64,000 bases of DNA. Source: an uncultured Myxococcales bacterium (GTDB lineage: Bacteria > Myxococcota_A > UBA9042). Below are positions 30,308 through 62,941 of the stretch, piece by piece (position 1 is the stretch's first letter; each line of letters opens with the position of its first letter). Location of the stretch: positions 72,474 through 136,473 of the forward strand of contig CAIYWC010000189.1 in the NCBI GenBank assembly GCA_903929795.1, in the 5' to 3' direction. Under the pieces are notes generated by a model. The model was not told the origin of the DNA and made no database searches. It was given only the letters and a program-made list of their open reading frames with translations. Both the position numbers and the translations under genes were made by a program.

Positions 30308-31531
30308 TTACGGCTTAACCGGCTTCTTGGGATTGTCCTTGTGATCCAGCCCGGCGTATTCGCGCCACGGCTTCTCGTCGGAGCCATAGTGCATGCCGGT
30401 CAGGTTCTCCAAGGCGAAAACCACGTGATTGACCAGCGATTTACTGTCCAGCCGCAGCAGCGGCACCAGTTCCGGCACGATCGTCTTGTCGCCCAAGGAC
30501 GGCAGCATGCGCAGGATGCGCACGGCCTCGTCGGGTTCACCACTCAGCGGCAGCGCCTGCAGCCGCTTGAGCAACACCACCGATGCGCCCGACGGCTTGA
30601 GCGCGACAACCGCCGCCTGCAGGGCAATCCGCTCGTCGGGCTCGATGTCGTCGCGCACCGCCGTGGCAAGCACGCGCAGGCCCGCCGAGCTCATCTTCAG
30701 CGCGACGAGCGCCTGCGCCGCCTCCGCCCGCGCGCCCGGCGTGTCCAGCCCCGCCAGCGCGGCGTTGTCCGCCCACGGTGTCGGCACCGCCGCGAGCACG
30801 CGCAGCGCTGCCCGGGCGACTTCCCGCGGCGTCGCGTCCACCAGCATCGTCGCGAGCGGCACCGCCGACTGCGCGCGCAGCGCCGCGAGCGCGTCCAGCG
30901 CCGGCGCCCGCACCATCGACAGCGTCCGTGGCGCGGCGGCGAGCGCCAGCAGCTCCGGTTCGGCGTCCGCGTTGCCGATCATGCCCAGCGCGTGGGCCGT
31001 GGCCGCCTGAACCCGCGGCGCGCCGGCCGACAACAACTGCCGCAGCGGCGCGACCGCAGCCTGAAACCGCAGCAGCCCGAGGGCCCCCGCGGCCAGAATT
31101 TGCGCCCGCTGGTCGGTGCCTCCCAGCATCTTCAGGAGCGCCGGTGCGGCGCGCGCATCACCCAAGCGCGCCTGGGCCGAGCGAATATCCGCGGTGGACG
31201 GGTCATCGGACAGGCTCGCGCCCGCAGCGTCCAGCGCATCCACCTCCGTGCGCGCGTCCAGCAGGCTGAGCGCCAGCGCGATCTTGCCGGCATCGCGCGG
31301 TGTCGCGCCCTTGAGCTGCGCGGCCAGGGCCTTCGCGACGTCATCGCGGCTCGCGAGCGCCGCGCTCAGCGCGGGACAGGTGCCAAACGCCAGGCTGTCG
31401 CATAGCAGCAAATCCTTGGCAATTTCAGGCGCATCGGCGGCCGGCGCCGGCGCCGGGGCCGGGGCCGGGGCTTGGGCAAAAGCAGGCGACGTCAGGGCGG
31501 CGACCAGGAACACGAGCAGGGCACGGGTCAT
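30308..31531 (-). CDS. Secreted HEAT/ARM-like repeat protein
   Basis: ATG 31531. Signal peptide MTRALLVFLVAALTSPAFA followed by (AP)5. Repeated helical ~35-aa units with LLxxL...ALG patterns. Confidence 0.6.
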   Translation of the reverse strand: MTRALLVFLVAALTSPAFAQAPAPAPAPAPAADAPEIAKDLLLCDSLAFGTCPALSAALASRDDVAKALAAQLKGATPRDAGKIALALSLLDARTEVDALDAAGASLSDDPSTADIRSAQARLGDARAAPALLKMLGGTDQRAQILAAGALGLLRFQAAVAPLRQLLSAGAPRVQAATAHALGMIGNADAEPELLALAAAPRTLSMVRAPALDALAALRAQSAVPLATMLVDATPREVARAALRVLAAVPTPWADNAALAGLDTPGARAEAAQALVALKMSSAGLRVLATAVRDDIEPDERIALQAAVVALKPSGASVVLLKRLQALPLSGEPDEAVRILRMLPSLGDKTIVPELVPLLRLDSKSLVNHVVFALENLTGMHYGSDEKPWREYAGLDHKDNPKKPVKP

Positions 31532-31756
31532 CAGAACCTCCGGGACGCTGGACACGCTGACCGCAATCGAAGCGCGCAGTCTGCCGGACCGCGGCACCCC
31601 ACCGGAGGCGCACGCGCGCGGTCCAGCCGGAAACGCCACAGGTCTACCCGACAACGCTTGGGTTCGTCCCAAGTCAGCGTGCATAGTCTGCGGCCGCGGC
31701 GCGCGCGTGTCGAGTCAGAAGCGGGGCAAAATCACCGTGGACACGGGTCGGCGCCG

Positions 31757-32707
31757 TCATTTGCGCCGCCAGGCGGTCACCGCGACCCCGCAGAAGATCA
31801 AGCCCGCGGCCGTCAGGACCTGCCAGCCGGGACGCAGGCCCAGCACGCGCCCTGCCGCGACGCCGGTCACCAGCGGCTGCAGGTAGACAAAAACCGCGAC
31901 GGTCGAGGCGCTGACGAACCGCAACCCGTACGCGTTGAGCAGGTAAGCCGCCACCGACGCGCCGAGCACGATGTAGGCGATGCCGCCCCAGACGCCAATC
32001 GGCAGCGCGCGCCAATCGACGAGCAGCAGCGCAGGCAGGCTGAACGGCAGGACCTCGAGCGCCGACCAGCCGAACGTCCAGCCGGTCACAGCCAGCGCGC
32101 CGTGTTTGGCGACCAGCGGCCGCGACAGCACCAGGTAAAAGCTGTACAGCAGCGTGTTGGCGCACAGGGCGAGGTTGCCCCACAGCCGGTCGACGCCGAA
32201 ATCCAGGCGTTCCGCGCCCACCAGCCACAGCGCCCCGGCCAGCGCGAGCAGCACGCCGACCATGCGCCGTGGGTCATAGCGCTCCTGGCGCAGCACGACG
32301 GCGATCAAGAGCGTGTAGCACGGAATCAGGCAGCCCAGCACCGCGGCATTGATGGGCGTGGAGCGTGCCAGGCCTTCGATGAACAACGCTTGGTTCGCGA
32401 CCACGCCGAGCAGCGACAGCCAAGCGCAGGAAAAGACCTCGCGACGCGTCATGGCCGAGCGCCACGGCCGGGTCGCGAAGAACAGCAGCGGACCGGCGAG
32501 GCAGACGCGCGTGCCGACGAGCGCGCGCGCCGGCAGGTACGGCAGCACGAGCTTGCCGACGACCGGCCAGATGCCAAAGACCACCTGGGCCAGCGCCAGC
32601 GCCACCAACGCGCGCAGGACGCGACGCGCTTGGAGTTCCTGGCTCAGGGCGGTTTCGATCACGCGCAAATCCGGGGCCAGACGCGGCCGGGGCGCGGAGG
32701 TCACCAC
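31757..32707 (-). CDS. EamA/DMT-family transporter
   Basis: 10 TM with two EamA-like halves. GTG start at 32707; start uncertain. Confidence 0.7.
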   Translation of the reverse strand: MVTSAPRPRLAPDLRVIETALSQELQARRVLRALVALALAQVVFGIWPVVGKLVLPYLPARALVGTRVCLAGPLLFFATRPWRSAMTRREVFSCAWLSLLGVVANQALFIEGLARSTPINAAVLGCLIPCYTLLIAVVLRQERYDPRRMVGVLLALAGALWLVGAERLDFGVDRLWGNLALCANTLLYSFYLVLSRPLVAKHGALAVTGWTFGWSALEVLPFSLPALLLVDWRALPIGVWGGIAYIVLGASVAAYLLNAYGLRFVSASTVAVFVYLQPLVTGVAAGRVLGLRPGWQVLTAAGLIFCGVAVTAWRRK

Positions 32708-32743
32708 GGTTTGCCGGCGATGGCAAGCGCGAGGCGGGAGCGC

Positions 32744-34588
32744 CTACCGCACACGACGGCGACGCCACGACAGCACCAGCCCCGCGAGCACGAGGCCCAG
32801 CAGCCCGGAGGCCGCGCCCCGCCCCGCCGTGCAACCGCCCGTCGTCGTGGAGGCGTTCACGTCCGGCAGCGTCACGGTCGGCTGGTCCGGGTTCCAGGTG
32901 ACGGGCGGCAACGCCGCGACAAAATCCGCCGGCAGGCTCGGCTGGCCCACCTTGGCGTTGTTCAGCTCCGCGTCGACCTGGTCGGCAAAGGTCTGGTCAA
33001 TCTCGATCGGCGGGCCGCTCTCGTCCAGCACCTCGATCTTTTCGGCGGGCTGGCCGCCTTCCGCCACGATCGGGCCCTTGCCGTCGTTGGTCGTCGAGAA
33101 GCCGTACGGCCCGTAGCAGTCATTCGGGCTCGTCGGCGCGGGCAGCGGCACCTCCACGGATGTCCCGTCGGCCAGGGCGATCTGCGCGCGCACGGCATCG
33201 GTCGTGCCCGCCGCGCAAATCGGCGTCGCCGTCGCGGTGTGCTGGGCGCTGACGGTCGGCAGGTCGTTGTTCCAGGCGAAAATCGGGTCCTTGTTCATCT
33301 CGTCCGGCGACACGAGCGTCATCAGGCGCGTCAGATACGCCGTCTTGGCATAGGCTACCTGCACGTCTGCCAGCGGTTGCACGACGCCATCGCCGATCGC
33401 TTGCGTCATCGCCGCCGGGTCAAACGGCTGCGCAGCCACGGCTTGCTTGATCGCCGCGCAGTCGCTGGCACATGCGTACTGGGTGCCACACGCGCCCGTG
33501 TAGCAGCAATCCTGTTGCAGGCAGCTGTAGAACGCCTGGTCCGTCGTGGCTGCAAAGGCCATCGGCTTGGGAATGTACTTCTGGATGATCGGCTGTAGCG
33601 TCTTGGACTGGCCATTGCCGATCGCCTGCAGCAGCGCGTTCAGGTACGCACCGGGCGCCGCAATCGCAGTCAGCGCCGCCGCATTCCAGCCCGTCAGCGC
33701 GAATTGCAGCTTCAGGTCCGCGGCCTTTTGCGCGAGCTCGGTCGTAAACGCGTGACCGGACGCCTGGTCAATCGCCTTCGCCGCGACGGTCAGGTAGTTG
33801 CCACCGGCCGTCAGCCAGTCGATCGTCTTCAGGTTCAGCACGACGTGCAGCCAGTTCTTGGGCACCGCACGCGCCGGCCCCATCGTCCAGATGATCACCG
33901 GCATGTCCGGGTTCGCCGCCAGCTGCGTCAGGCGAATCGGCAGGCACGGCGACGCCTCCTGTAGCTGCAGCACGATCGGCACCAGATCGCCGTCCGACTT
34001 GTCCTTTTGCAGCCTCAGTGCGAGGAACACAAAGCCCTGCTTGGCATACGCGTCCAGCAGTCCCGCCGTCGCCGGGGGCTGATCATAGCCGTTGTCGCTC
34101 AGCCACTTCTGCAGGTCCGCACCGCTGTCGCCCTGAATCACCTTGGTGTCGTACGGCCCAACATTCTCCGACGCCAGCACCGTCACACCCCCGCCCGGGG
34201 ACGTCGTCTGCGTCTTGTCGTTTGCCACGCCACCGTCCATCGCGTACGCGCAGTACGGAAAATGGCAATTCGGGTCGTTGTTCGCGTAGTTCAGATTGAA
34301 CGTCGGCCGCGTCGCGGCGTCCAGGACCGTGAAGATGCTGTCCGAGCCGGTCTTCAGGGTCGGCACGCTCTGCACCGGCAGGACCCAGCTGAAATTCTGC
34401 GAGGGCCCCTGATAGCTGATTTGGATGTGGACCGTGATCTGCGGCCCGTCCTGCACGTAGAGCACGCGCTCGGCGGCCTGATTGACCGGGCTCTGGAGGT
34501 TGCAGAAAAAGCCGCCGCAAGCCCAAGCGGGCGCAGCGAACAACAGGCCGGCGATGACGAGCATGGACCCATGGAAACGCGTAAACAT
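32744..34588 (-). CDS. DUF2330-type secreted protein with a C-terminal MYXO-CTERM sorting signal
   Basis: ATG 34588 with AGGAG upstream. N-terminus ...AAPAWACGGFFC (DUF2330 hallmark). C-terminus TTGGCTAGRGAASGLLGLVLAGLVLSWRRRRVR (Gly-Gly-Cys, hydrophobic stretch, Arg cluster). Confidence 0.75.
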   Translation of the reverse strand: MFTRFHGSMLVIAGLLFAAPAWACGGFFCNLQSPVNQAAERVLYVQDGPQITVHIQISYQGPSQNFSWVLPVQSVPTLKTGSDSIFTVLDAATRPTFNLNYANNDPNCHFPYCAYAMDGGVANDKTQTTSPGGGVTVLASENVGPYDTKVIQGDSGADLQKWLSDNGYDQPPATAGLLDAYAKQGFVFLALRLQKDKSDGDLVPIVLQLQEASPCLPIRLTQLAANPDMPVIIWTMGPARAVPKNWLHVVLNLKTIDWLTAGGNYLTVAAKAIDQASGHAFTTELAQKAADLKLQFALTGWNAAALTAIAAPGAYLNALLQAIGNGQSKTLQPIIQKYIPKPMAFAATTDQAFYSCLQQDCCYTGACGTQYACASDCAAIKQAVAAQPFDPAAMTQAIGDGVVQPLADVQVAYAKTAYLTRLMTLVSPDEMNKDPIFAWNNDLPTVSAQHTATATPICAAGTTDAVRAQIALADGTSVEVPLPAPTSPNDCYGPYGFSTTNDGKGPIVAEGGQPAEKIEVLDESGPPIEIDQTFADQVDAELNNAKVGQPSLPADFVAALPPVTWNPDQPTVTLPDVNASTTTGGCTAGRGAASGLLGLVLAGLVLSWRRRRVR

Positions 34589-34741
34589 CGGGAGACTCCT
34601 GGGCAAAAAATCCGCGGCAAGCCAGCGCGCTGGCGCTTGGATGCGCTGGTTGTCAGTGAACCGGGTGGACGCCCGGCCAAGGAGTCTGGCAGGCTCACGC
34701 TAATGACGGCGCGGCGACGTGTCAAGAAGGATCCGCAACCC

Positions 34742-35215
34742 ATGAACCTGACGCCACGGATGCCGCAACGTCTGCCGGACGACTGCCTTCTGCCAGGGTC
34801 GCGTCACACGCGCGCGGGCGGCGTCTCGACGCGCTACACCTGGCGGGCGCTGGAACGCGTGGTGTGCGGCGAACTCGATTTTGGCGCCGACGCGGAAGGG
34901 CTGCCGGGTTACGTCCACGGCGGCGCGCTGTCGGCGATTGCCGACGAGGCGATGGGGTTCGCCTGCTGGTGTGAAGGCCATTGCGCACCGGGCGCGCAAG
35001 TGGACGTCACGTTCCTGCAGCCCGTGCGCGCCGGCGATCACGGGCAAGTGCGCGCGTCGCTGGTCGAGAGCCAGGGGCGCAAGCTGCACTGCCAAGCCGA
35101 TATTCGCGTCGCGGACGTGCTCGTCGCGCGCGCCACGGGCCTCTTCATCGCCACACCCTTGCAGGATCCCGCGCCGTTCGCCCAGTGGCCCGGCGTCGAC
35201 CGCTTCCGGTCGTAG
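34742..35215 (+). CDS. PaaI-family hotdog-fold thioesterase
   Basis: Motif GYVHGGALSAIADEAMG. Start at ATG 34742 or 34703; the long ORF from 34007 overlaps the DUF2330 antisense strand and was rejected. Confidence 0.65.
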   Translation: MNLTPRMPQRLPDDCLLPGSRHTRAGGVSTRYTWRALERVVCGELDFGADAEGLPGYVHGGALSAIADEAMGFACWCEGHCAPGAQVDVTFLQPVRAGDHGQVRASLVESQGRKLHCQADIRVADVLVARATGLFIATPLQDPAPFAQWPGVDRFRS

Positions 35216-35220
35216 CCGGC

Positions 35221-35259
35221 AAAAACGCCGACGCCGACGAAGTTTCCCTCGTCGGCGTC
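35221..35259 (-). terminator. Intrinsic terminator for the minus-strand metzincin gene (11-bp perfect stem GACGCCGACGA/TCGTCGGCGTC, 8-nt loop, then U5 on the minus-strand transcript)
   Basis: Stem 35230-35240/35249-35259. A5 at 35221-35225 on the plus strand reads as TTTTT on the minus strand. Lies 23 nt past the stop at 35282-35284. Confidence 0.5.
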
Positions 35260-35281
35260 AGCCAATCGCATCCGCTTGCGC

Positions 35282-38200
35282 TTACGGGTACAGGCCCTTG
35301 GACGCCGGCGTCAGATCCAGACCGTACGCGCTCACCGCCTCGCGGAGGTAGTACGGGATGGTCAGGTACTGCTGCAGCGTCATGCACGCGTGGTTGTCCG
35401 CGCACGTGCAACCGGAGTTGTTGGTCGCGTTGCAGTTCGGCGTACCGCCACCCGTCGTGACCGGCTGCATCGCCGCGTCATACTTGACCAGCGCCACGCC
35501 CGTCTTCGGGTCGGTCGCGGGCAGGTACCACTCCGGCGTGCCATCGCCATCCAGGTCCGGACCCGGCGTCGTCACATAGGCATCCTTGAGCAGGCTGTTG
35601 GCGTATTCAAGCACGCGCGCCGCGATGCCTTGCTGGACACTCTTGCCAAAGATCGTCTCTTTGCCAAAGTACCGGGCGACGTAAATCTTGCCATCCGCAG
35701 AGTGGAATTCCATGCGGTTGGTGCCGATGTTCGGATCCGCGTCCACGCCGAGCTCCCACAGCCGCATCTGGTCGAGCCAGTTCTGCTGCTGATTCTCCAT
35801 CAGGTAGAGCATGGTCCACGCAATGAAGAACTTCTGCTGCTCGTAGCCCTGCTGCGGGTCGATCACACCGACGGCCGTCGGCTGCACCGCGCCAAACGGC
35901 GTGGTGTTGTCCTGACCGTACGCGCGGCAAATGGTCGAACCAGCGCCCGGAAAGCAGGAGACCGGGGTCGCGCCATACCAGGAGGTGAAGCCGAGGCCCT
36001 TGGTCGGATACTGTTCCGCGTCCACTTCCGGATCGCCGCCAGCAGCCTTCAACGAGACGCGCGCGCCCTTGATGAAGTCGTCGCCCGTCAGCGTGTTGGC
36101 GATAAAGCGCCGGTAGCCTTCCGGGAACAGGTCGGCGATGGAGACGGAGCGATACCGCGCGTCCTCAAAGTCGCCCAGCGTCGAGCTGATGAAGTTGTCA
36201 ACCGACTCGGTCAGCAGCATCGAAGCGCCCGCCTTCTCGTAGTACGAACCGGCATTCAGGGTGTATTCGACGTTGTAATCCGGACCTTCGTTGGTCGCCA
36301 GCGCGTTCTCCACGGGCTTGCCGCCGAAGCTGACGGTCTCGAGCAGACCCGTCGCGCCGTTGGGCACGATCAGCTTGGTCGCCGGCGGCGTGTTCGAATT
36401 CGAGCCCGCCGTTGCGCGCAGGATCCCCGCCGTATCCGCATAGTGCGCACCGGCTTCTGGACGCGCCGCGATCATCGTGAAGTGATCGAACACCATCGAC
36501 GCACCGAGCACGGCATCCGGGAAGAAGTTCTGCGCCGCGTAATTCCACAGGTCGTCCGGGTTGAGGTTCTGGCTCAACGCGATGTCCCGGTAGATGTTGC
36601 GGTACAGACCCAGACCCTTGGCACCGTCGCGCATCTTCTCGTAGTAGCGCGTCAGCGAGCGGTTGTACGCGTTGCGGATCGCGAACGTCTTGCGGCCGCG
36701 GCGGTAGTTGTCAAAGATGTGGTTCACTTCCGGCTGCGTGATCATGAAGTTGAAGATCTCATAGTTATCCGCGCCGTTGTCGTGGCGGTAGACGCTGGCA
36801 TTGCCCAGATCCGCCCAGGTGTCCGTCGCGAAACCGTACGGCACGCGCGTGCGGCCGTCCTTGTCGATGTCCGGTCCGCCCTCGTAGTACTGCACGTTGG
36901 CGTCCTGCGTCGCGTTGGGCAGGGTCAGCTCCTGCCACTTGACGTAGTCGACGGGCTGCGCGCGGCAACGCGTGTAGCCGTTGTCGCCCTGCACAAGCAG
37001 ACCGTCCAGCAGCGGATTGAACTGACCGTCCCGCGTGTTGTCCCAGCGACCCGGCTTCCAGTTGATCGGGTCGCTGATCGCCGCGCAATTACCGATCAGC
37101 GCGTAATTCTTCTGGTATTCCGAATAGTGAATGTTGGTCGTCGCGCCCTTTGTCGCGCCGATGACCGGCTGCAGACCCAAGATACCGCCAAAGCCGTCCA
37201 TCTTGGAGAGCACGCCCGTGCCGCGCTTTTGGCCGACGTTATACGACGGGTCCTGGTAGACGGCGGAGGCGTCGCCGTAGAACATCGACGGCGCGTGGAA
37301 GTCGTACGCGCCCAAGCCGAGCAGGTCCTGCGTCGTCTCACCCGCGTAGTCCATCACCGACGACTGCATCCACATCCAAATCAGGTTGTCGCGCTCCGTC
37401 TTGGTGACCGGGTCAAAGTAGCGCGCGCCCACGCAGGTCTCGGCGTTGGCGACGGTCTGCAGGTTCGTGCACTTCTTGGTGACCGAACCGTCCTTGGTGC
37501 GGAGCTGCCAGTACTGCGGGCGGTAGTTGAACGCGTCCGCCGACGAGATGAAGTTGTGGCGCAGGCCGACCGAGTGACCCATTTCGTGAATCACGACGGC
37601 ATAGTGCACGCGACGGGCCAGGTAGAGGCGCATGGCCTCGGCGCGGGCCTGCTTGCGGGCGGTGAACGCCTCGTCGGTCATGTTCGGATCGGGCTTGGTC
37701 GTCTCGAAGCTGCCGAACTTGGCCTGCAGCACGTCGCCCAGACCGGCGATCGACAGCGGCGCATCGGCCATCTCCATTTCGCACGCGCCGCGCGACGCCA
37801 TCGCCAGCTCCTTGAGCTGCGTGAAGTTGCGCTGCACCGCCGGGTTGCCACCACGCAGCGGCGAGACCATGTCCATCAGCCCGGACGTCAGCTGCAGACC
37901 GGCGACGCCGAAGAACTGCTGCATCATCGGGGTCATCAGGTCCATCTCGAACTGCGTATTCGCCGCAGCCTGACGCCGCGCCATGTACGACGGCGAGTTG
38001 ACCGACGGCGCCCCCTGCTGCGCGGTCACGCCGGCGAGCTTGGCCGCAACGCCCGCCACCAGCGACGCCGCCTCCGGGTGCTGCTGCGCGAACTGCTGGG
38101 CGCGTTCCGGGTTGATCTGCACGCCGCTGGAACCCGTCCGCCGCGCGTACTGATCGGCGTTCACGCCGCCGGCCAGACCGCTGGTCGAAGCCGCTTCCGC

Positions 38201-40171
38201 CGCAGCCGCCCAGTTCTTGATGTACTTGCCTTCCGTGATGTCGGCAGCCTGCAGTTCGCCCGCGGCGTAGCGCGCCATGTCGACGGTGCCTTGGCTCCAC
38301 AGCTCGTTGATGTAGGTCCAGACGTTGATGCTGGCGGAGACTTTTTCGCCATTGGTCGGGTCCGAGCCATCGACCATGATGCCCCACGGCGACGGCGTGG
38401 CGGGTTCCACGATGCCGTTCACCTGGTGGTAGCGCAAGTCGCCGCGGCGCACGTGCGTCGCAGCGTTGCAGGTCGCGATGGTGGCCAGGTCGCCGGCGGT
38501 GTGGGCGTTGAAGCAAGCCTCGGCCGTCAAGGACGCGGGCAGGCGCTTGTCAGCCGGCGCGCAAATGGCGGGGTCGCCCGCTTCGACCGGGCTGTGGCAA
38601 AGTACAACCATTTCCGGCAGCTTGGCGATCGCGATCACGCCCGGCGCCAAGTTGCGCTTGGCGCTACCGCCAACGTCGTCAGCGATCGCGGTGCACGCGT
38701 TTTCGTCGCGGTTCTTGTCCTTGTACGCGAGGCCGTGGCGGCAGTCGTCGACTTCCTTGGCCAGCGCGATGGCGTCTTCGTTGTCGTCCTGCTGGCCAAA
38801 GTAGACCGGGAACTGCGCCAGGCACGTCGCCGGATCCGTGCCGGCGCTCTTGCATTCCGCGTACTTGGCTTCCTGGGCAGCGGCGCGCAAGGCGACGTCC
38901 CATTCATGCGTGGCGTCTTCGGTCGGCTGGAAGTAGTCGGGATTGCTGCCGTCCGCATAGTACCAAGCGATCGGCTTGGCCGTGCGCTTTTGGTACGGCA
39001 GGGTGCAGCGCTGGCGGAACGTGTCGCACTGCGAACCGCCGACGCCGGTCAGCTTGGTGACGCTGGCGCACTCGTCTTCCGTGCCGTCGCCGTCGGTGTC
39101 GCGGTGCGGATCTTCGCCGTACGGCGTGGTCGAGCCCGTGTAGCAGGTGACTTCGCCGGACATGGCGACCGGATCGGCGTAGTAGTGGCTGCGCTCCCAG
39201 ATGTTGTAGCGCTCCAGGAAGCGGTGCCACAGCTGGTCCGTCATGCCGTAGTCGCGCGAATAGCCGAGGCGATCAGTCGTGAAGCCGCCGGCCGAGGCGA
39301 AGCGAAAGCCGTCCCATTCCTTGGGCTCGTAGTCGCTGTCGACGACCTTGCGGAAGGAGTGGCGCAGCGTCAGCTCAACCGGATTGCACGTGGCGGCCGG
39401 CGCCTGGCCACCGGAGAAATCGGCGTCGAGAAAGCAGGACGGATACTCCTTGATGCCCCAACCCAGCGAAGACAGGTCGATCATGCCGGGCCGCGCGAAC
39501 GACTTGGTCGTGACGTCGAAGTACGTGCCATCGTCGGCGAAGTACGGCGCATCTTCCGAGCTTGGATCGACGATCTGGTAGGTCAGCGGTTCGTACGTGA
39601 TGCCACCGATGACGCCCATCATCGACAGCGTGTCGAAGTCATAGCTGTCTGTATTCAGGTTCTTGGACCAGTCGACGCGCATGTAGTCCCGCGCGTACCA
39701 CGGCCGATCGACGGTGTTCTCGCCGACGACGTTGTACTGCTCGCCCGTCGAGGCGTTGTAGTCGCGCTTGATGTCGAAGTGCGACTGAATGGCGAACGCG
39801 GCGACGATGACGCCGTCTTCGGTCGTCTTGCCCAAGCCCTTGCCGTCCGAGCTCACGATGCGCTCGTAGGAAAGGCGCGCAATCAGCAAGCTTTCGGTGA
39901 TCTGCCACTTGACGCGCGACAGCGGCTGCGCATAGGTCGACGTGAACAGGCCGTCTTGTGCCGCGCCGTATCCGACGTCAGTGACCGTCGTGCGGGCCCA
40001 GAATTCCGGATCGTCCGCCGTGCTGATGTAGTCAGCGCCGACAAAGAACGTCTTCTGCAGGGCATCCGGCTGGACGCGGTTGATCGGCGCACGTTCCTGG
40101 GCGCAACCGCTGACGATCGCAGCGATAAGCAAGCAGGGAAGAACGAGCGGGGTAAAACGACGGAGGTTCAT
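35282..40171 (-). CDS. Giant (1629 aa) secreted metzincin-type zinc metalloprotease lipoprotein
   Basis: ATG 40171: MNLRRFTPLVLPCLLIAAIVSGC|AQ lipobox. HEMGHSVGLRH (HExxHxxGxxH) and Met-turn SSVMDY about 40 aa downstream. DxDGDG Ca-loop-like motifs. The 102 aa upstream of this Met in the ORF were rejected. Confidence 0.85.
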   Translation of the reverse strand: MNLRRFTPLVLPCLLIAAIVSGCAQERAPINRVQPDALQKTFFVGADYISTADDPEFWARTTVTDVGYGAAQDGLFTSTYAQPLSRVKWQITESLLIARLSYERIVSSDGKGLGKTTEDGVIVAAFAIQSHFDIKRDYNASTGEQYNVVGENTVDRPWYARDYMRVDWSKNLNTDSYDFDTLSMMGVIGGITYEPLTYQIVDPSSEDAPYFADDGTYFDVTTKSFARPGMIDLSSLGWGIKEYPSCFLDADFSGGQAPAATCNPVELTLRHSFRKVVDSDYEPKEWDGFRFASAGGFTTDRLGYSRDYGMTDQLWHRFLERYNIWERSHYYADPVAMSGEVTCYTGSTTPYGEDPHRDTDGDGTEDECASVTKLTGVGGSQCDTFRQRCTLPYQKRTAKPIAWYYADGSNPDYFQPTEDATHEWDVALRAAAQEAKYAECKSAGTDPATCLAQFPVYFGQQDDNEDAIALAKEVDDCRHGLAYKDKNRDENACTAIADDVGGSAKRNLAPGVIAIAKLPEMVVLCHSPVEAGDPAICAPADKRLPASLTAEACFNAHTAGDLATIATCNAATHVRRGDLRYHQVNGIVEPATPSPWGIMVDGSDPTNGEKVSASINVWTYINELWSQGTVDMARYAAGELQAADITEGKYIKNWAAAAEAASTSGLAGGVNADQYARRTGSSGVQINPERAQQFAQQHPEAASLVAGVAAKLAGVTAQQGAPSVNSPSYMARRQAAANTQFEMDLMTPMMQQFFGVAGLQLTSGLMDMVSPLRGGNPAVQRNFTQLKELAMASRGACEMEMADAPLSIAGLGDVLQAKFGSFETTKPDPNMTDEAFTARKQARAEAMRLYLARRVHYAVVIHEMGHSVGLRHNFISSADAFNYRPQYWQLRTKDGSVTKKCTNLQTVANAETCVGARYFDPVTKTERDNLIWMWMQSSVMDYAGETTQDLLGLGAYDFHAPSMFYGDASAVYQDPSYNVGQKRGTGVLSKMDGFGGILGLQPVIGATKGATTNIHYSEYQKNYALIGNCAAISDPINWKPGRWDNTRDGQFNPLLDGLLVQGDNGYTRCRAQPVDYVKWQELTLPNATQDANVQYYEGGPDIDKDGRTRVPYGFATDTWADLGNASVYRHDNGADNYEIFNFMITQPEVNHIFDNYRRGRKTFAIRNAYNRSLTRYYEKMRDGAKGLGLYRNIYRDIALSQNLNPDDLWNYAAQNFFPDAVLGASMVFDHFTMIAARPEAGAHYADTAGILRATAGSNSNTPPATKLIVPNGATGLLETVSFGGKPVENALATNEGPDYNVEYTLNAGSYYEKAGASMLLTESVDNFISSTLGDFEDARYRSVSIADLFPEGYRRFIANTLTGDDFIKGARVSLKAAGGDPEVDAEQYPTKGLGFTSWYGATPVSCFPGAGSTICRAYGQDNTTPFGAVQPTAVGVIDPQQGYEQQKFFIAWTMLYLMENQQQNWLDQMRLWELGVDADPNIGTNRMEFHSADGKIYVARYFGKETIFGKSVQQGIAARVLEYANSLLKDAYVTTPGPDLDGDGTPEWYLPATDPKTGVALVKYDAAMQPVTTGGGTPNCNATNNSGCTCADNHACMTLQQYLTIPYYLREAVSAYGLDLTPASKGLYP

Positions 40172-40277
40172 GGCATTCCTCTGGGTGAACAATCGGGCGG
40201 TCAACATCAAGGGGGCGGACGTCAAGTGAGCGGTCCGTCTGAGCATTTCAAACAACACGAGCATTTCGAACAAGAAA

Positions 40278-41564
40278 CTAATGGGGCAGACCATCCAGCG
40301 CGAGCGACAGTTCCAAATAGGCCGTCGTGTAGCGGTTGATCCCGGGGGTTTCATAGGTGGAGTCCAGCTTGAGCTGCGCGTTGTACGTCTCCAGCCCGAT
40401 GCCGGCGCCGAGCCAGGCGAAGACCGCGTAGTCGATGCCCGCGCCCCAATACATGATGGCGCGGAAATTCTGGTCATCGCCCGGCGTCAGCTGCACCGGC
40501 GCGCCGCCCGTCACCGAGATGGTCGTCGCGGCGAGTGAGGGCAGCCAATCCATGATTTCGCCGCCGGAAATCGAGGCGCTCAGCTTTTCCGTAAACGAGT
40601 AGCTCAGCGAGCCGATGGCGAGAATGCGGTTCTGTGCGGAGCGCACGCCGGTCGTTTGCAGCGAAGGGTCGCAACCGAACGCGTCGCCCGTGCAAGTGGT
40701 GATCGGCTGCGCATTGAACTGCCCTTCCGTGGACTTGTAGAAGCTGTGCTGAAAGCGGGACGTCAGGCTGACCGTCAAGTCGCGCCACGAGAAACGGCCG
40801 CTCAGGCCAATACCGGGCGCCATGTACAGCTGCTTGGCCTGCGAGGCCTTGGACGTCGGCAGGCCAACGATACCCTGCAGCGTCAGGCTGAAACCCGTCG
40901 GCGGCCTCTCGGTCTTTTCGACCTTCAAGATGCCGGCCGCTGTATTCAGCACGGTCCAGCCGAAGCTCACCATGGTGTCCGAGAGTTGCGGCTCGCGGTA
41001 ATAGGTCGTGTTGCCGGTGTTGGTCAGCTCCACCGTGGAGTACTGCCACAGCCCGATGCTCATCGTGTCGTTGAGCATGTAGCGCGGCGCGATCATCAGG
41101 CCCAAGCCCTCGTAAGGCGCGTAGGTCTGCTCGTAGTCGGGCACAAAAAGCGTGGTGCTCGTCAGGTTGCGAAAGGCGATAATTCCGCGCCAAGGCCATG
41201 CTTTCTTGTCGGTCGCTGCGGCTTGAGCGGTAGCGACGGGCAGCGTCGTGGTCGTGCCAGCGTCGGTTGTCGGCGTCGCAGCTTGAGCGGGCGCGAGCGC
41301 AGCAGGAGCCGCCAAGCTCGCGGGGACAGCGTTCGTGTCGGGTGCGGGTGGTTGGGCTGCCGGTGGCTGCGCCGGAGGTGCGGGCGTGTCGGCGAGGGGC
41401 GTCGGCGCGGGCGGAGCAGATGCTTCCGGCACTTCTTGGGCATCTGCGGCGCGGGCGCTTGCAAGCGACAGTGCGAACATGCCGGCGAGCACGCAGGCGA
41501 GCGCAGCAGCAGACGCCGGGACGAACTGGGCGCGCAAACGAAGCAAAGCGGCAAACCTGAACAT
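40278..41564 (-). CDS. Hypothetical secreted beta-rich protein (possible outer-membrane beta-barrel) with a Pro/Ala-rich linker
   Basis: ATG 41564 with GGGAG upstream. Signal peptide MFRFAALLRLRAQFVPASAAALACVLAGMFALSLASARA|ADA. Alternating hydrophobic beta-strand pattern in the C-terminal 300 aa. Confidence 0.6.
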   Translation of the reverse strand: MFRFAALLRLRAQFVPASAAALACVLAGMFALSLASARAADAQEVPEASAPPAPTPLADTPAPPAQPPAAQPPAPDTNAVPASLAAPAALAPAQAATPTTDAGTTTTLPVATAQAAATDKKAWPWRGIIAFRNLTSTTLFVPDYEQTYAPYEGLGLMIAPRYMLNDTMSIGLWQYSTVELTNTGNTTYYREPQLSDTMVSFGWTVLNTAAGILKVEKTERPPTGFSLTLQGIVGLPTSKASQAKQLYMAPGIGLSGRFSWRDLTVSLTSRFQHSFYKSTEGQFNAQPITTCTGDAFGCDPSLQTTGVRSAQNRILAIGSLSYSFTEKLSASISGGEIMDWLPSLAATTISVTGGAPVQLTPGDDQNFRAIMYWGAGIDYAVFAWLGAGIGLETYNAQLKLDSTYETPGINRYTTAYLELSLALDGLPH

Positions 41565-41725: not shown

Positions 41726-44233
41726 TTACCCGAGCCACGCGAGCCCATCCACCCCAGCGTGCGCCGCGAGCGTCAGCGTTTCGCCGTTCGCGCCTTCAGC
41801 GCCTTGCAGCGTCAATGTCACCTGCCACACGCCGGGGGACGGCGCGTGCAACGCACAGGCGTCGGCGAGGCGGCTCCGGTGGTCAAAAACCAGCGTACCG
41901 TCGATTTCTACAGCCTGTTTCCAGGCCACCAGGCGCTCCGCGGTCCACGCAATCCCTTCGGCATCGGGCTGTAGCATCGCCGCGGCGTCGTCCAGCGCGC
42001 CCGCCGCGATCGCCTGCAGCAGCGCCAGCGCTTCGACCCGCGCACGCGCCTTGAGTGCCTTGTCCGCGGCGCGTGGATCCACTGGCATATCGGGAACTTC
42101 ACTCACAACGTCTACGCCCGTTCGCAGCCGCTGCCATTCATCCAACAGGGACCGGTCCACGCGCGCGAGCACCGCCCGCAGCCACGCCACCAGCTCCAGC
42201 AGCGGGTCGCTTTGCAGATCCCCCGGTACGTTTTGCACAAGCACCTTGTAGACCTGCATCAGGTAGCGCAGCAGCACGCCCTCCACCGTTTGCAGGCCCA
42301 GTTCGCGCACGTATTCGTCAAAGGTACACCAAGCCTCCGCCATCTCGCGCACCACGCCCTTGGGCCGGATTGCGGTGTGCGCGACCCAGGGGTGATGTTC
42401 GCTAAACTTCTCAAAATTCGCATAGATCCAGTCCGCCAGCGGCTTGGGCCAGGTCACGGCGTCGACCAACTCCTTGCGCTCTTCATACGGCACCCCGTCG
42501 TTTTTCAGCTCCGCCAGCAGCTGCTGCTTTTCGCGTTGAGCTTGGGCTTTGAGGACTTGCGACGGGTTGTCGAGGATCGCCTCGCACAGCGCCAGGATCT
42601 CCAGCGGGTCCGTCGGCCGGCCCTCCGCAGTCGTCTGCGCGTCCAGATCGTCCAGCGCCTGCACCAGCCAGAGCGACAGCGCGTGGTGCAGCGAGAAATC
42701 GCGCTGCAGCCCGACGGCCAGCCGCGCGATCCGGCCGCGCTTGTGGTCCGGGCGCGCCACCAGGTCCACGATGCCGTGCCGCCAGAGCGCCCGGAACAGC
42801 CGCGCAAGATCGCGCTGATGCTGGAGTTTTTGCGCCGGGCGCTCGTGACTGTGGCGGATCAGCGCCACGACGTCGCGCAGGCCGCCCTGGCCCAGCTCGT
42901 CTTCCGATCGCGGCAGCATCGCCAGGATCAACCCTTCGTCAACGCGAAAGATCGACGTCAGCGCCTCGGGTTTGCCACTTTGCAGCCGCTCGAAGCTTTC
43001 GGCGTTCCACGGCACGTAGCCAAATTCCGGCGGTTTGGCCTTCACGAACGGCTTGGAGCGGCCGTGCTGGTCGATTTTCGCCTCCATCCGCCGGTTGTAA
43101 ATCACGTGTTCCGGCGCCTGTGCGACCACCCAGCCGACGTCGTCAAAGCCCTTGCGACCGGCGCGACCGGCGAGCTGGTGGAACTCGCGCACGCTCCAAA
43201 GTCGCGTATTTTCGCCGTCATAGCGACACAGCTTGGTGAACACGACGGTTTTGATCGGCAAGTTGATGCCCACGCCCAGCGTGTCCGTCCCGCAAATCAC
43301 CGGCAACAGCCCCTGCTGTGCCAGTTTTTCGCACAGCAGCCGGTAGCGCGGCAGCAAGCCGGCGTGGTGCAGGCCGATACCGTGCCGCAGCAAGCGCTGG
43401 ACGTCCTTGCCGTACGGGCTGGGAAAGCGTTGACCTTCCAAGACTTGGGCGATCCGCCGCTTCTGGTCCTTGCTGCACAGCTCCATCGACGCCAGGGCAC
43501 CGGCCGCCTCGCCCGCCTCGCGCTGGCTCGCGTGAACCAGGTACACCGGCGCGCGCCCGGATTTCAGCAAATCGTCCAGCGTCTCCGTGATCGGCGTCTC
43601 GCGGTACTCAAACTGCAACGGCACCGGCCGCTCGGTGGCGCTGACCAGCTTCACGGCGCGTCCGGTCAGCGCCACCAGTGCGTCAGCGATGCCGGTCGTG
43701 TCGCCCAACGTCGCGGAAATCAGCAGGAATCGCGCGTGTGGCAGGGTCAGCAGCGGCGTCTGCCAGGCCATCCCGCGGTCCTTGTCCGCGTAGTAGTGGA
43801 ACTCGTCCATGGCGATATCAGCGTTTTGAATGGATTTTTCACCGCGGAGCGCGAGCTGCGCCAGGACCTCCGCGGTGCAGCACAGCACCGGCGCGTCCGT
43901 GTGCACCGAGGCATCGCCCGTCGCCAGGCCCACGCGGTCTGCGCCCAGCCGCTCGCACAGCGCAAAGAACTTTTCGCTGACCAACGCCTTGATCGGACTG
44001 GTGTAAACCGACCGCCGGCCGGCCGCCAGCGCCAGCACGTGCAGCCCTTCTGCCACCAGCGACTTGCCCGAGCCCGTCGGCGTCGCCAGGATGACGTGGT
44101 GGCCCGCGGCCAGCTCCAGCAGCGCCTCTTCCTGCGCCGGATAGAGCCGCCGGCCGTCCGCCGTCACCGCATCGACAAACGCCAGAACCGCGTCGTCCGG
44201 CGCCATGGCATCCTGCAAGAATTCCAGCGCCAT
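41726..44233 (-). CDS. DEAD/DEAH-box (Ski2-like) helicase with a C-terminal DUF3516-like extension
   Basis: Motif I TPTGSGKS, motif II DEFH, motif III SAT and motif VI QLAGRAGRKG. Confidence 0.85.
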   Translation of the reverse strand: MALEFLQDAMAPDDAVLAFVDAVTADGRRLYPAQEEALLELAAGHHVILATPTGSGKSLVAEGLHVLALAAGRRSVYTSPIKALVSEKFFALCERLGADRVGLATGDASVHTDAPVLCCTAEVLAQLALRGEKSIQNADIAMDEFHYYADKDRGMAWQTPLLTLPHARFLLISATLGDTTGIADALVALTGRAVKLVSATERPVPLQFEYRETPITETLDDLLKSGRAPVYLVHASQREAGEAAGALASMELCSKDQKRRIAQVLEGQRFPSPYGKDVQRLLRHGIGLHHAGLLPRYRLLCEKLAQQGLLPVICGTDTLGVGINLPIKTVVFTKLCRYDGENTRLWSVREFHQLAGRAGRKGFDDVGWVVAQAPEHVIYNRRMEAKIDQHGRSKPFVKAKPPEFGYVPWNAESFERLQSGKPEALTSIFRVDEGLILAMLPRSEDELGQGGLRDVVALIRHSHERPAQKLQHQRDLARLFRALWRHGIVDLVARPDHKRGRIARLAVGLQRDFSLHHALSLWLVQALDDLDAQTTAEGRPTDPLEILALCEAILDNPSQVLKAQAQREKQQLLAELKNDGVPYEERKELVDAVTWPKPLADWIYANFEKFSEHHPWVAHTAIRPKGVVREMAEAWCTFDEYVRELGLQTVEGVLLRYLMQVYKVLVQNVPGDLQSDPLLELVAWLRAVLARVDRSLLDEWQRLRTGVDVVSEVPDMPVDPRAADKALKARARVEALALLQAIAAGALDDAAAMLQPDAEGIAWTAERLVAWKQAVEIDGTLVFDHRSRLADACALHAPSPGVWQVTLTLQGAEGANGETLTLAAHAGVDGLAWLG

Positions 44234-44248
44234 GTGCGACTCCTGTGG

Positions 44249-45607
44249 TCAATCCGCCGTGTGCGGCAAGGTCACGATGAACTGCGCGCCGCGGCCCGGT
44301 TCGCTCACGACCCGCACGTGACCCCCGTGACGCTGCACGACATCGCGGACAATCGCCAGCCCCAAGCCGCTGCCAACGCCGCGTTTGTCCGGCCGGTGGA
44401 ACGGCTCAAAGATCGCCTCAGCCTGTTCCGGCGGCACGCCCGGGCCATCGTCCGCCACCCGCAGCGACCAGGAATGCGCGAGTTGAATCACTTGAATTTC
44501 AATATGTTGGTCAGCAAACCGGACCGCGTTGGCCAGCAAATTGTCCACGACCTGCCGCAGCGCCGCGCCGTCCACCGCCGCCTCCAGGACGGACGGGCCG
44601 CCGATCGCAATCTGCACGCCTCGCTCCGCCGCCGTCGCCGCGACCGTTTCGCGTGCCTCGCGCACGATCGCCACGATATCCTGACGCGCAACCAGCCATT
44701 TGGCCTGACGAATCGCCGCGAGATCCAATAGCCGACTCGCCAGATCCGCCAGGCGGTCCACCTCCCCGCGCGTCCGCTCGAGGGTCTCGCGCAGCTCCGC
44801 TGACGTGCGATCGCGCCGCAGGGTCACGTCGATGTCGGTCCGCATCGCGGCCAGCGGCGTGCGCAATTCGTGCGCGGCATCGGCAAAGAGCCGCTCCTTC
44901 TCGTCGCGCGCCGTCCGCAGTCGGTCAGTCGCCTCGGCGATCGCATCGCGCAGCTCGGTCAGCACGTCGTTCTGGTCGTCCGGCTCCGGGGCGCTCTTGA
45001 GGTCGCCCGCGTGCAAGCGCTGCATGTGGGCGTACAGGCGCATCACGCGGCCGTGGAGCGCGCGCGCGTGGCGCAGTTGCAGCGCGAACAGACCGAGCGC
45101 GACCAGCAGCGCCGTCAGGCTCGCGACCCTCAGATAGGCCAGCACTGTCTGGCGGTTGTGTGCCAGGGACGCCGCCAGTCGCAGCACGTGGGGCCGACCA
45201 TCCGGCGCGCGCACGGCGATCAGCAGCTCGCGGACGGGCTTGTCGCGATCGCGCGCGGTCTGCAGGTGCGGCTCAGCGTCCGGCGCCACCCACTGCAGCG
45301 TCGGCGGCACGACGGCATCGGCGGGCTCGTGCGCCAGCAGCCGACCGTCGGGACCGTACAGCGCGCCGGTCGCCGAGGTCAGCCGCACCGACTCCGGCAG
45401 CGGCGAGCGGTCGAGGTGCAGGTGCGGCGCGTGGTCCATGCGGTCAAACAGGCTCACCGACTCCACCGCGGCCTGCGCCAGCAGCGCGTGATCGACGCTG
45501 ACCTGCAGCTCGCGGTCCAGCAGGACGCCGACGAGCCCAAACGCCGCAACCAGCAGCAGCGAAGGCACCAGCGCGCCGTACAGCCACAGCCGCGTCGACA
45601 GCTTCAC
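44249..45607 (-). CDS. Two-component sensor histidine kinase (CusS/CzcS-like, periplasmic sensor domain)
   Basis: Two TM segments flank a ~150-aa periplasmic domain. H-box AAHELRTPLAAM. ATPase G-boxes. Confidence 0.85.
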   Translation of the reverse strand: MKLSTRLWLYGALVPSLLLVAAFGLVGVLLDRELQVSVDHALLAQAAVESVSLFDRMDHAPHLHLDRSPLPESVRLTSATGALYGPDGRLLAHEPADAVVPPTLQWVAPDAEPHLQTARDRDKPVRELLIAVRAPDGRPHVLRLAASLAHNRQTVLAYLRVASLTALLVALGLFALQLRHARALHGRVMRLYAHMQRLHAGDLKSAPEPDDQNDVLTELRDAIAEATDRLRTARDEKERLFADAAHELRTPLAAMRTDIDVTLRRDRTSAELRETLERTRGEVDRLADLASRLLDLAAIRQAKWLVARQDIVAIVREARETVAATAAERGVQIAIGGPSVLEAAVDGAALRQVVDNLLANAVRFADQHIEIQVIQLAHSWSLRVADDGPGVPPEQAEAIFEPFHRPDKRGVGSGLGLAIVRDVVQRHGGHVRVVSEPGRGAQFIVTLPHTAD

Positions 45608-46275
45608 GGCCGCGCCTCCAGGCGAAAGCCAATCCCGCGCACGGTGGCGATGCTCAGACGATCCGTATGCAACTCGTTGAGTTTCTTACGTAAATAACCG
45701 ACGTAGACGTCAACAACGTTGGCCTCGCCGTCAAATGCGGTGCCCCAGACGCCGCTCAGCAGCTCCGTGCGCGTGCAGGCGTCGCCGACGCGTTCGAACA
45801 GCAGGCGCATCAGGGCAAATTCCCGCGCTGTCAAAGGCACTTCCACGCCCGCGCGCGCCAGCACCCGCCGATTGGCGTCCAGCTCCACATCACCCGCGCG
45901 CAACGCGCCAACGGTCGTGGAGCGACGGTGCAGCGCCTCCAAGCGCGCGAGCAATTCCTCAAAATCAAATGGTTTTACCAAGTAGTCATCCGCGCCTGCC
46001 CGCAGACCGGCGATCCGCTCTGGCACGCTGGACCGCGCCGTGAGCATCAGCACCGGCATCGTGCAGCCGCGCGCCCGCCACGCGCGCAGGACGGTCAGCC
46101 CGTCGGCGTCCGGCAGCGACCAGTCGAGGATCGCCACGTCGTAATCCAGCGCCAGACCCTGATCGATCGCGTCCGTGCCACGCTCGCAGGCGTCCACGGT
46201 GTGGCCTTCTTCGGTCAGGCCGCGCGCAATCACCCGCGCCAAGCGCGTCTCGTCCTCCACAAGCAGCAGTTTCAT
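45604..46275 (-). CDS. OmpR-family response regulator (CusR/CzcR-like)
   Basis: MKLLLVEDE start at 46275 with GGAGAAAAACC upstream. Winged-helix C-terminus. Overlaps the HK start and the czcA stop by 4 nt each. The 399-aa ORF extension was rejected. Confidence 0.9.
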   Translation of the reverse strand: MKLLLVEDETRLARVIARGLTEEGHTVDACERGTDAIDQGLALDYDVAILDWSLPDADGLTVLRAWRARGCTMPVLMLTARSSVPERIAGLRAGADDYLVKPFDFEELLARLEALHRRSTTVGALRAGDVELDANRRVLARAGVEVPLTAREFALMRLLFERVGDACTRTELLSGVWGTAFDGEANVVDVYVGYLRKKLNELHTDRLSIATVRGIGFRLEARP

Positions 46276-49200: not shown

Positions 49201-49346
49201 ACCAGCACTTGGTTCGACGTGACGTCCGGCAGCGCGTCCAGCCGCAGCCGCACGCCGTAAAAGGCCGCCAGCCCGACCAGCATCGCCGTCAGCACCAGTA
49301 CGAAACCGCGGTGATGCAGGGACCAGCGTGTCAGCGCCTCGATCAT
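46272..49346 (-). CDS. czcA: CusA/CzcA-family heavy-metal efflux RND pump
   Basis: 1024 aa with 12 TM. Start MIEALTRWSLHHRGFVLVLTAML at 49346. Confidence 0.9.
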   Translation of the reverse strand: MIEALTRWSLHHRGFVLVLTAMLVGLAAFYGVRLRLDALPDVTSNQVLVLTRAPGLVPVEVERLVTRPIETALGGVPGMVAQRSLSRYGLSSVTAVFADDVDGYRARQVVQERLNLVTADLPVGVEPPELGPLTGGLGEIYHFAVRSPERTKAELLELVQLRIAPLLRQVPGVVEVNWWGGERRSLEVLARPADLARLHLTVADLIGALHKAIGASPGASVAAGGGQVLLRAVAWPTQPAQLAAAIVRAPQPGEPTSVRVSDVADVVEGALPRIGSATANGQGETVYVMVQMLRDANALEVTHGVRAQMPKVRAILPPDVRLDLIYDRAELVGKTLRTVGKNLLEGGLLVVAVLLLLLGSLRAGLLVALCIPLSMVVAAAGMVWGDIAGNLMSLGAIDFGLLVDGAVVMVEGLFHVLQARDDTRPLQERMEDCAVGVARPVFFSVLVILLVYVPVLSLQGVDGKMFRPMAATVIFALAGALLLSLTFIPAAASLLLRSRDVPKREPFLLRTAHQLYLPVLHRAIAHPLVVFAGALGLLALGLWLVLRAGSSFVPQLDEGDLVVQTTRSPDVSLETAVDASTRMEQALLTHVPEVAQVVSRVGSPEVATDIMGLEQADVFVRLKPKAQWRPGLDRDALIADMAAVLKRRDPGSDAAFTQPIQMRFNELLGGSVTDVDVSVYGDDLTALRTVAEHVAAAIRQAKGAEDVRILAPPAVATMQVIPDALGAAQQGFSAADILDVVQAVKTGVPVGMTYDGPVRIPVRVRMAQTPTAFTLREMPLPNSAGDLIALAKIAHVDLQETPGLVSRNAGERRLVVGFNVRGAELGDVVTAAQTAVAQVKLPIGLRLEWGGQWRTYQDARARMAVVIPIVLLLIIGVLIFTFGRVGPALLILLNVPFAGVGGMMALALRGLPVSMSAAIGFIALSGIAVLNGVVLMAQVLKLQESGMDAVNSAREAAAGRLRPVLMTAMVAMLGFVPMMLATGPGAEVQRPLATVVVGGLVTSTALTLLVLPSLVAWLGRRKTK

Positions 49347-49347
49347 G

Positions 49348-62865: not shown

Positions 62866-62941
62866 GGTCGGGGAGACAGGATTCGAACCTGCGACATCCT
62901 GCTCCCAAAGCAGGCGCGCTACCGGACTGCGCTACTCCCCG
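62866..62941 (-). tRNA. tRNA-Pro (anticodon UGG)
   Basis: Reverse complement reads CGGGGAG-TA-GCGC-AGTCCGGTA-GCGC-G-CCTGC-TTTGGGA-GCAGG-...GGTTCGAATCC...-CTCCCCG-ACC. It has a 7-bp acceptor stem, D and T arms, and anticodon-loop TTTGGGA giving UGG. CCA is not encoded. Confidence 0.85.

Follow-up and report, generated by a model that had tools for sequence, protein, structure and literature searches.

What does a giant lipoprotein with the zinc site of a metzincin protease do in the envelope of a member of the Myxococcota, and why does the gene of a small exported, beta-rich protein lie directly upstream of it? These questions are raised by two adjacent genes in a stretch of 64,000 nucleotides from an uncultured Myxococcales bacterium (assembly GCA_903929795.1, contig CAIYWC010000189.1, positions 72,474 to 136,473 of the forward strand), hereafter called the window, in which positions are counted from the first letter. 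The two genes, referred to below as the protease and partner genes, are a real and previously uncharacterised module: a predicted metzincin in a novel giant architecture is tied to a new family of predicted 12-stranded beta-barrels. They are arranged as follows.

35217..35262, minus strand: intrinsic terminator, its 16-bp stem (with 11 G-C pairs) closed by a GAAA loop and followed by T5
35282..40171, minus strand: protease gene, encoding a lipoprotein of 1629 amino acids (aa) and 170 kDa with a metzincin-type zinc site
40172..40277, minus strand: intergenic spacer of 106 bp, with a GAGGAA ribosome-binding site ahead of the ATG
40278..41564, minus strand: partner gene, encoding an exported protein of 428 aa

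Both genes are on the minus strand, with the partner gene located 106 bp 5' of the protease gene. No terminator was found within this spacer, and the two genes are probably co-transcribed. The strong terminator hairpin occupies 35262-35227 and lies about 20 nt past the TAA stop codon of the protease gene. The database proteins P0001 and P0121 have the same lengths as the protease and partner gene calls. The G+C content is about 67% across the window and long shadow open reading frames (ORFs) are present on both strands. Two such frames were rejected as artefacts of this base composition: a 1731-aa ORF from 40477, which extends the protease ORF at its 5' end (40172-40477, minus strand), and a 1687-aa plus-strand ORF (35276-40339) antisense to the protease gene. 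No second copy of either gene was found in the 64-kb window.

The protease can be divided into the following parts, of which the motifs were read from the sequence.

40103..40171, minus strand: lipoprotein signal peptide and lipobox (MNLRRFTPLVLPCLLIAAIVSG / C), with the Cys23 codon at 40103-40105
38999..40102, minus strand: N-terminal conserved region (aa 24-391) with six conserved Cys and DTDGDG, conserved in distant paralogues too
39083-39100, minus strand: DTDGDG motif (aa 358)
37676..38998, minus strand: N-terminal half of the catalytic module (aa 392-832), supported by AlphaFold model and conservation profile
37781..37783, minus strand: Cys797 in an RGAC motif, 65 residues before the zinc helix
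37556..37588, minus strand: zinc-binding consensus HEMGHSVGLRH (aa 862-872), in which a long helix (aa 833-865) ends
37346..37360, minus strand: Met-turn candidate SVMDY (aa 938-942), with Met940 and Tyr942
35285..37345, minus strand: C-terminal 690 aa of mixed alpha/beta structure, with HEAT-like helical arrays and a terminal four-Cys cluster
36854-36871, minus strand: DIDKDG motif (aa 1101)
35540-35557, minus strand: DLDGDG motif (aa 1539)

The pattern HExxHxxGxxH occurs exactly once in the protease. From its sequence, which supplies three His as ligands, Glu as the catalytic residue and a Met-turn with Tyr after it, the protein is predicted to carry a metzincin-type zinc endopeptidase site. 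Its residues agree with the extended zinc consensus of the metzincins (HExxHxxGxxH/D), and nearly all of 102 full-length superfamily members have the catalytic residues as well as the lipobox Cys. The H, E, H, G and H positions are kept in 96-101 of these members, Met940 in 100 and Tyr942 in 97, down to 25% identity; in the structural model the Met-turn has a predicted local distance difference test score (pLDDT) below 50. An initial annotation, made from the sequence alone, had described a 1629-aa lipoprotein with a metzincin motif directly downstream of a beta-rich protein with a signal peptide, together with the full HExxHxxGxxH site, an SxMxY Met-turn, DxDGDG-like motifs and an intrinsic terminator. 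All of these were recovered here, the DxDGDG-like motifs as three DxDxDG sequences. Its estimate of about 1000 aa before and about 550 aa after the active site has to be corrected to about 840 mature residues before the zinc site and about 690 after the Met-turn.

It is very improbable that the large protein is an inactive structural or adhesive lipoprotein that has kept a relic zinc motif. Such an idea could draw on the 95% of the chain that gave no protease-like match and on the few superfamily members with degenerate zinc sites, HQxxR...P and HAxxH (P0258/P0367 and P0225/P0246), which are probably pseudo-proteases. Within the orthologue group of the window protease, however, H862, E863, H866, G869, H872, M940 and Y942 are invariant, which is the signature of a maintained catalytic site.

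Membership of the metzincin clan was further assessed with profile searches. Against Pfam and NCBIfam, the protease gave only sub-threshold matches of about 20-45 residues around the zinc site, to DUF4953, M10, M12, M43 and M57, all of which belong to this clan. The match to DUF4953, M10 or M12 profiles anticipated in the initial annotation was thus obtained at the HExxH region, but it is short and, for the window protein, below threshold. The best-scoring Pfam family was DUF4953 ('Met-zincin', PF16313), with 21 bits against a gathering cut-off of 24.2 and an alignment restricted to profile positions 15-35 for the window protein; overall, no more than about positions 7-36 of the 316 are covered, and neither of the companion domains DUF5117 and DUF5118 was detected. 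In each of the 20 homologues tested, DUF4953 matches at the zinc motif only. Paralogues of the protease pass the threshold (32-38 bits), and some of them are named 'zinc-dependent metalloprotease' by NCBI. No match to the protease was found in the PDB by sequence and profile searches, and the N-terminal region (aa 24-391) had no match in either Pfam or the PDB. A literature search found no papers on DUF4953 and none on the family of the window protease.

The AlphaFold model of the protease covers only aa 392-1591 (pLDDT 79, predicted template modelling score 0.80). It consists of a five-stranded sheet split by helical inserts (strands at aa 401-405, 522-526, 582-587, 599-603 and 610-618), a long helix ending in HExxH, and an extensive C-terminal part made mostly of helices. 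The sheet is broken by a Cys-rich helical insert (about aa 440-520), and a variable helical insert (about aa 650-832) follows the sheet. The sheet and the active-site helix may correspond to the upper subdomain of the metzincin fold, but the active-site loops have low confidence and the structural match to a metzincin is weak. Compared with the known members of the clan, of astacin or serralysin type or the minimal snapalysin, the fold is instead split by inserts of about 80 and about 180 residues, and the catalytic region is embedded in 1600 aa without known domains, in which the matches of the metzincin Pfam profiles are confined to the zinc helix.

The mature protease contains 25 Cys besides the lipidated Cys23. 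Among them, Cys797 is the one without an obvious partner. It is invariant in 120 orthologues and present in 64 of the 102 superfamily members; several others have a Cys no more than a few columns away. The odd Cys count and the isolated position of this invariant residue ahead of the zinc helix suggest Cys797 as a candidate zinc ligand, which may act as a latency element resembling a cysteine switch.

How widespread is this protein, and how fast does it evolve? A homologue search returned at least 951 proteins, and the best 120 listed, nearly all about 1600 aa long, aligned over 97-100% of the query with 53-87% identity. These 120 are labelled hypothetical and derive from Myxococcota metagenome-assembled genomes (MAGs) and Sorangium. 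In an alignment of 20 of these the mean column identity was 63%, and the lipobox Cys, the zinc ligands and the Met-turn were invariant, as were nearly all other Cys. When one genome per species was scanned, relatives of the protease turned up in 378 genomes. The best 80 of these nearly all bear labels of Myxococcota or Myxococcota-like Delta- or Proteobacteria MAGs (one is labelled 'Enterobacteriaceae'); the groups named among them include Sorangium, Polyangium, Kofleriaceae, MAGs labelled Archangium or Myxococcaceae, Vulgatibacter and Bradymonadia. Representatives of 50%-identity clusters were searched exhaustively, which gave 1330 matches (408 with E <1e-30), including paralogous subfamilies of 1250-1780 aa from Myxococcales MAGs with 25-40% identity. 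A link to a surface metalloprotease that sheds CglB in M. xanthus (PMC9946355) was considered and dropped, as no cultured Myxococcaceae genome is found among the 80 best loci.

Between Myxococcota classes, the orthologues are still 53-57% identical over 1600 aa, with essentially one per genome, and they also occur in the cellulolytic Sorangium. The suggestion of the initial annotation that the protein is a predatory or secretome weapon is not supported by this pattern. Given the very slow evolution of the protease and its presence in Sorangium, a conserved envelope or housekeeping role fits better than that of an arms-race effector, and the high conservation points to a constitutive function in the envelope or in nutrient processing rather than to a diversifying weapon.

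The cellular location of the protease can be predicted from its N-terminus, MNLRRFTPLVLPCLLIAAIVSGC. As in other bacterial lipoproteins, the signal peptide ends in a lipobox (V-S-G-C, cleaved as ...IVSG / C) with an invariant Cys, the lipidated Cys23. This residue is invariant in the 20 aligned homologues and kept in 97 of the 102 superfamily members, and 100 of 119 homologues have a lipobox. From Cys23 onward the mature N-terminus, CAQERAPINRVQP, is conserved. In M. xanthus, Lys at position +2 marks inner-membrane lipoproteins and Ala at position +7 marks matrix lipoproteins (PMC3222651). The mature protease has Ala, not Lys, at +2 and Pro, not Ala, at +7, so that by these rules it is probably sorted to the outer membrane.

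The product of the partner gene consists of three parts.

41448..41564, minus strand: Sec signal peptide (aa 1-39, ...LASARA / AD) recognised in the sequence, modelled as a single helix over aa 17-39
41202..41447, minus strand: disordered linker rich in Pro, Ala and Thr (aa 40-121), with pLDDT <50 for aa 38-117
40281..41201, minus strand: barrel domain (aa 122-428) of 12 amphipathic strands

The partner is not a lipoprotein, as it has no conserved Cys at the signal peptide. The AlphaFold model has a pLDDT of about 90 over aa 120-428 and shows 12 long strands, in which hydrophobic residues alternate with small or polar ones that face the lumen, connected on the periplasmic side by turns of 2-4 residues. 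With a signal peptide and with amphipathic strands that are antiparallel, even in number and closed into a barrel in the model, the partner is confidently predicted to be a 12-stranded outer-membrane beta-barrel. This agrees with the initial annotation, which had taken the protein for a possible outer-membrane barrel with a Pro/Ala linker. The linker is specific to close relatives; distant homologues are about 340-350 aa long and do not have it. A Pfam and NCBIfam scan of the partner gave no match, and no match to the barrel was found in the PDB by sequence and profile searches. Conserved motifs of the family are E..LSD, PTSKxSQA, a C..C loop (disulfide) followed by TGVR, and QL.(P)DSTY..P..NR. 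They are located in the long connecting loops and not in the strands. Given that both termini are periplasmic, these loops are presumed to be extracellular or to fold into the lumen, and conservation of this kind fits a binding or gating role.

The folds closest to the partner model include the small solute-specific 12-stranded channels KdgM, NanC, VhGalP, Tsx and COG4313. This resemblance raises an alternative that we consider unlikely, in which a surface-exposed protease, exported for example by type II secretion like other giant lipoprotein proteases, digests external proteins and the barrel imports the resulting peptides. Small or polar residues line the lumen as such a channel would have them, an operon linking an enzyme with an uptake channel follows a common logic, and Myxococcota live on macromolecules. 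However, conservation in the partner is found in the loop motifs and not in the residues of the strands that line the lumen, general porins are normally enough for peptides, and Sorangium retains the protease without an adjacent barrel, as described below. Coupled digestion and uptake would also need a protease exposed at the cell surface. The partner has no sequence relationship to the 12-stranded barrels COG4313 channel (4rl8), FapF amyloid secretion channel (5o65), KdgM/NanC or PcoB. It further differs from them in that no plug helix is predicted and the conserved loop motifs are unique to its family.

Is the association of the two genes conserved? A hidden Markov model (HMM) of the partner barrel domain was run on six-frame ORFs of the best 80 genome loci, 73 of which have upstream DNA. 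A full-length partner gene lies directly upstream, on the same strand and ending 0-200 bp before the protease gene, in 51 of the 73 informative Myxococcota loci, which represent several classes. The gap between the genes in other genomes has a median of about 25 bp, and a 4-bp overlap was found in 7 of 26 loci. A word-indexed search had restricted the partner to 12 close relatives, a result rejected as an artefact of sensitivity since the HMM found the partner in 51 genomes. For the reverse test, metagenomes were scanned with a narrow partner alignment, and eight of the loci found had downstream DNA; the protease was the next gene downstream in seven. Downstream of the remotest partner homologues (E of about 1e-36 to 1e-42) lie two giant lipoprotein paralogues in tandem, which in L085 are only 23-25% identical to the window protease, one of them with the zinc site HEMGHCEGLRH. 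The dedicated, co-conserved pair that the initial annotation had envisaged is thus borne out in both directions. Because the pairing is kept across much of the phylum, the partner and the protease very probably work together at the cell envelope.

In the protease tree, the 22 loci without a partner form four monophyletic clades, namely Sorangium/Polyangium and three MAG clades. Since they are confined to these clades, the adjacency looks ancestral and appears to have been lost or relocated several times, at least four. The genes found upstream of the protease in the partner-less clades are not barrels: they encode a PPC-domain lipoprotein, HisD-like proteins, a cytoplasmic-looking protein or, in Sorangium, lipoprotein paralogues.

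The pattern also bears on the idea that the operon only co-expresses two envelope proteins without direct functional interaction, which we regard as improbable. The repeated loss of adjacency (at least four times) with no visible change in the protease, and exceptions on the partner side (L095, L096), would be expected under mere co-expression. Against it, the pair is the only conserved synteny among dozens of reshuffled neighbourhoods, the pairing persists between paralogue subfamilies at 23-25% identity, and stop and start codons overlap in several genomes. No other conserved neighbours were found beyond three close relatives, and only promiscuous kinase families turned up in this search.

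Taking these results together, our leading interpretation, which we hold tentatively and at nearly an even chance, is that the two genes form an outer-membrane module characteristic of Myxococcota, in which the barrel is the membrane partner of a lipid-anchored protease. The first gene would provide a 12-stranded beta-barrel, exported by Sec and inserted into the outer membrane. The second, co-transcribed with it, would provide the 170-kDa disulfide-rich lipoprotein sorted to the same membrane, with translational coupling suggested by the 4-bp overlap in some genomes, and the two proteins would form a complex. A preferred version of this module, to which we give distinctly less than an even chance, has the barrel docking or threading the N-terminal stretch of strictly conserved residues that comes after the lipidated Cys of the protease and thereby holding or displaying the enzyme at the outer membrane. 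It is suggested by the conservation of the protease from the first residue after the Cys, by the loop conservation of the partner and by the logic of a barrel with an adjacent lipoprotein known from Slam. The displayed enzyme would cleave envelope or extracellular proteins, and Cys797 may hold its zinc site latent in the manner of a cysteine switch. A still stronger proposal, which is quite doubtful, is that the barrel represents a new dedicated display device, unrelated to Slam, that captures the N-terminal segment and exposes or positions giant lipoprotein metzincins at the cell surface across Myxococcota.

Several points weigh against this interpretation. The complex, its surface exposure and its proteolytic activity are what we infer from sequences and models, in which the active-site loops have low confidence and the resemblance to metzincin structures is weak. 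Four monophyletic clades do not have the two genes side by side, among them all 10 Sorangium and two Polyangium genomes, and a profile search of limited sensitivity found no partner in Sorangium; the protease may thus work without a partner barrel. Between proteases of partner-less and partner-linked lineages, no group-specific sequence change was found, and the N-terminus is equally conserved in both. Partner-family genes occur without the protease next to them at L095 and L096. At L083:424-9362, no barrel gene lies upstream of a tandem pair of superfamily paralogues, which are 1497 and 1453 aa long and share 35% identity. Finally, a folded 170-kDa protein with about 12 disulfides cannot pass a 12-stranded lumen. 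Therefore, any role of the barrel as a translocon needs the threading of a short segment or another export route, and the lost adjacency in Sorangium argues against an obligate translocon.

A function on the inner side of the membrane would require no crossing of the outer membrane at all. The lipoprotein might degrade or process envelope proteins on the inner face of the outer membrane, in a manner similar to BepA or to further metalloproteases of quality control that carry helical repeats, with the barrel as its anchor, regulator or preferred substrate. The very high conservation with essentially one orthologue per genome, the HEAT-like helical arrays flanking the catalytic core and the many disulfides, which suit periplasmic folding, are all in keeping with such envelope maintenance. 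We nevertheless consider it unlikely, as the partner offers little conserved surface towards the periplasm, with barrel turns of 2-4 residues and an unconserved N-terminal extension, and carries its conserved motifs on the presumed outer side.

The outer-membrane module can also be compared with known systems. It resembles Slam (type XI secretion) in that an outer-membrane barrel gene lies beside the gene of the lipoprotein it possibly serves; adjacency is about 52% for Slams (PMC5449769) and about 70% for the pair described here. Slams are defined by an N-terminal TPR domain and a 14-stranded DUF560 barrel (PMC5449769). In contrast, the partner has a disordered N-terminal linker and 12 strands, no match to DUF560 or TPR was found in 65 members of its family, and its cargo would be a disulfide-rich protein of 170 kDa. 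The pair also differs from type V systems, in which a 16-stranded Omp85-type TpsB carries POTRA domains or a barrel is fused to its passenger. SslE/YghJ of Enterobacteria are giant lipoprotein metalloproteases of about 1500-1600 aa; each has one HExxH site and acts on the cell surface or beyond it. They have a zinc site of another class, not HExxHxxGxxH with a Met-turn, and are exported by a dedicated type II system. The window protease is similar in size, lipoprotein nature and single HExxH, but it is instead paired with a small barrel, and no match to SslE/YghJ was obtained in any search made.

In soil and freshwater, Myxococcota are important as degraders of protein and as predators, and most of their envelope proteins are unstudied. 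The protease superfamily is large: clustering at 50% leaves 1330 representatives, relatives occur in at least 378 species genomes, and its members of about 1600 aa have almost no known domains or solved relatives. Its genetic link to a new family of predicted 12-stranded barrels offers a concrete two-protein system for studying the positioning of large lipoproteins at the outer membrane, or their passage across it, beyond the examples of Slam and LptD type. The protease itself adds a metzincin architecture that is new and may include an internal cysteine switch.

Related loci show further arrangements. In L085:3913-15410, the tandem giant metzincin lipoprotein paralogues are 1507 and 1546 aa long, and at the P0189 locus they are 1483 and 1664 aa long. 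In both loci a pair of genes for M16 (pitrilysin-type) peptidases precedes the distant barrel homologue, and this arrangement may constitute a larger proteolytic gene cluster. In one partner-less clade (L012:3931-5541, with the same position in L005 and L014), a lipoprotein of 540-600 aa with a PPC (pre-peptidase C-terminal) domain is encoded in place of the barrel. The Sorangium loci (L027:720-4796 and others) have two paralogous lipoprotein genes of about 500-685 aa upstream of the protease gene and a Ser/Thr kinase gene downstream; this arrangement is kept within the genus only, and the lipoprotein scanned had no Pfam match.

The genes flanking the pair in the window (within 30315-35215 and 41726-50409) are syntenic in three close relatives only. 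One flank encodes a DEAD/DUF3516 helicase, a two-component pair and an RND efflux system, and the other a 4HBT thioesterase (on the opposite strand), a DUF2330 protein, an EamA protein and a HEAT_2 protein. The sole RNA gene detected in the window is a tRNA-Pro (TGG) at 62866-62941 on the minus strand.

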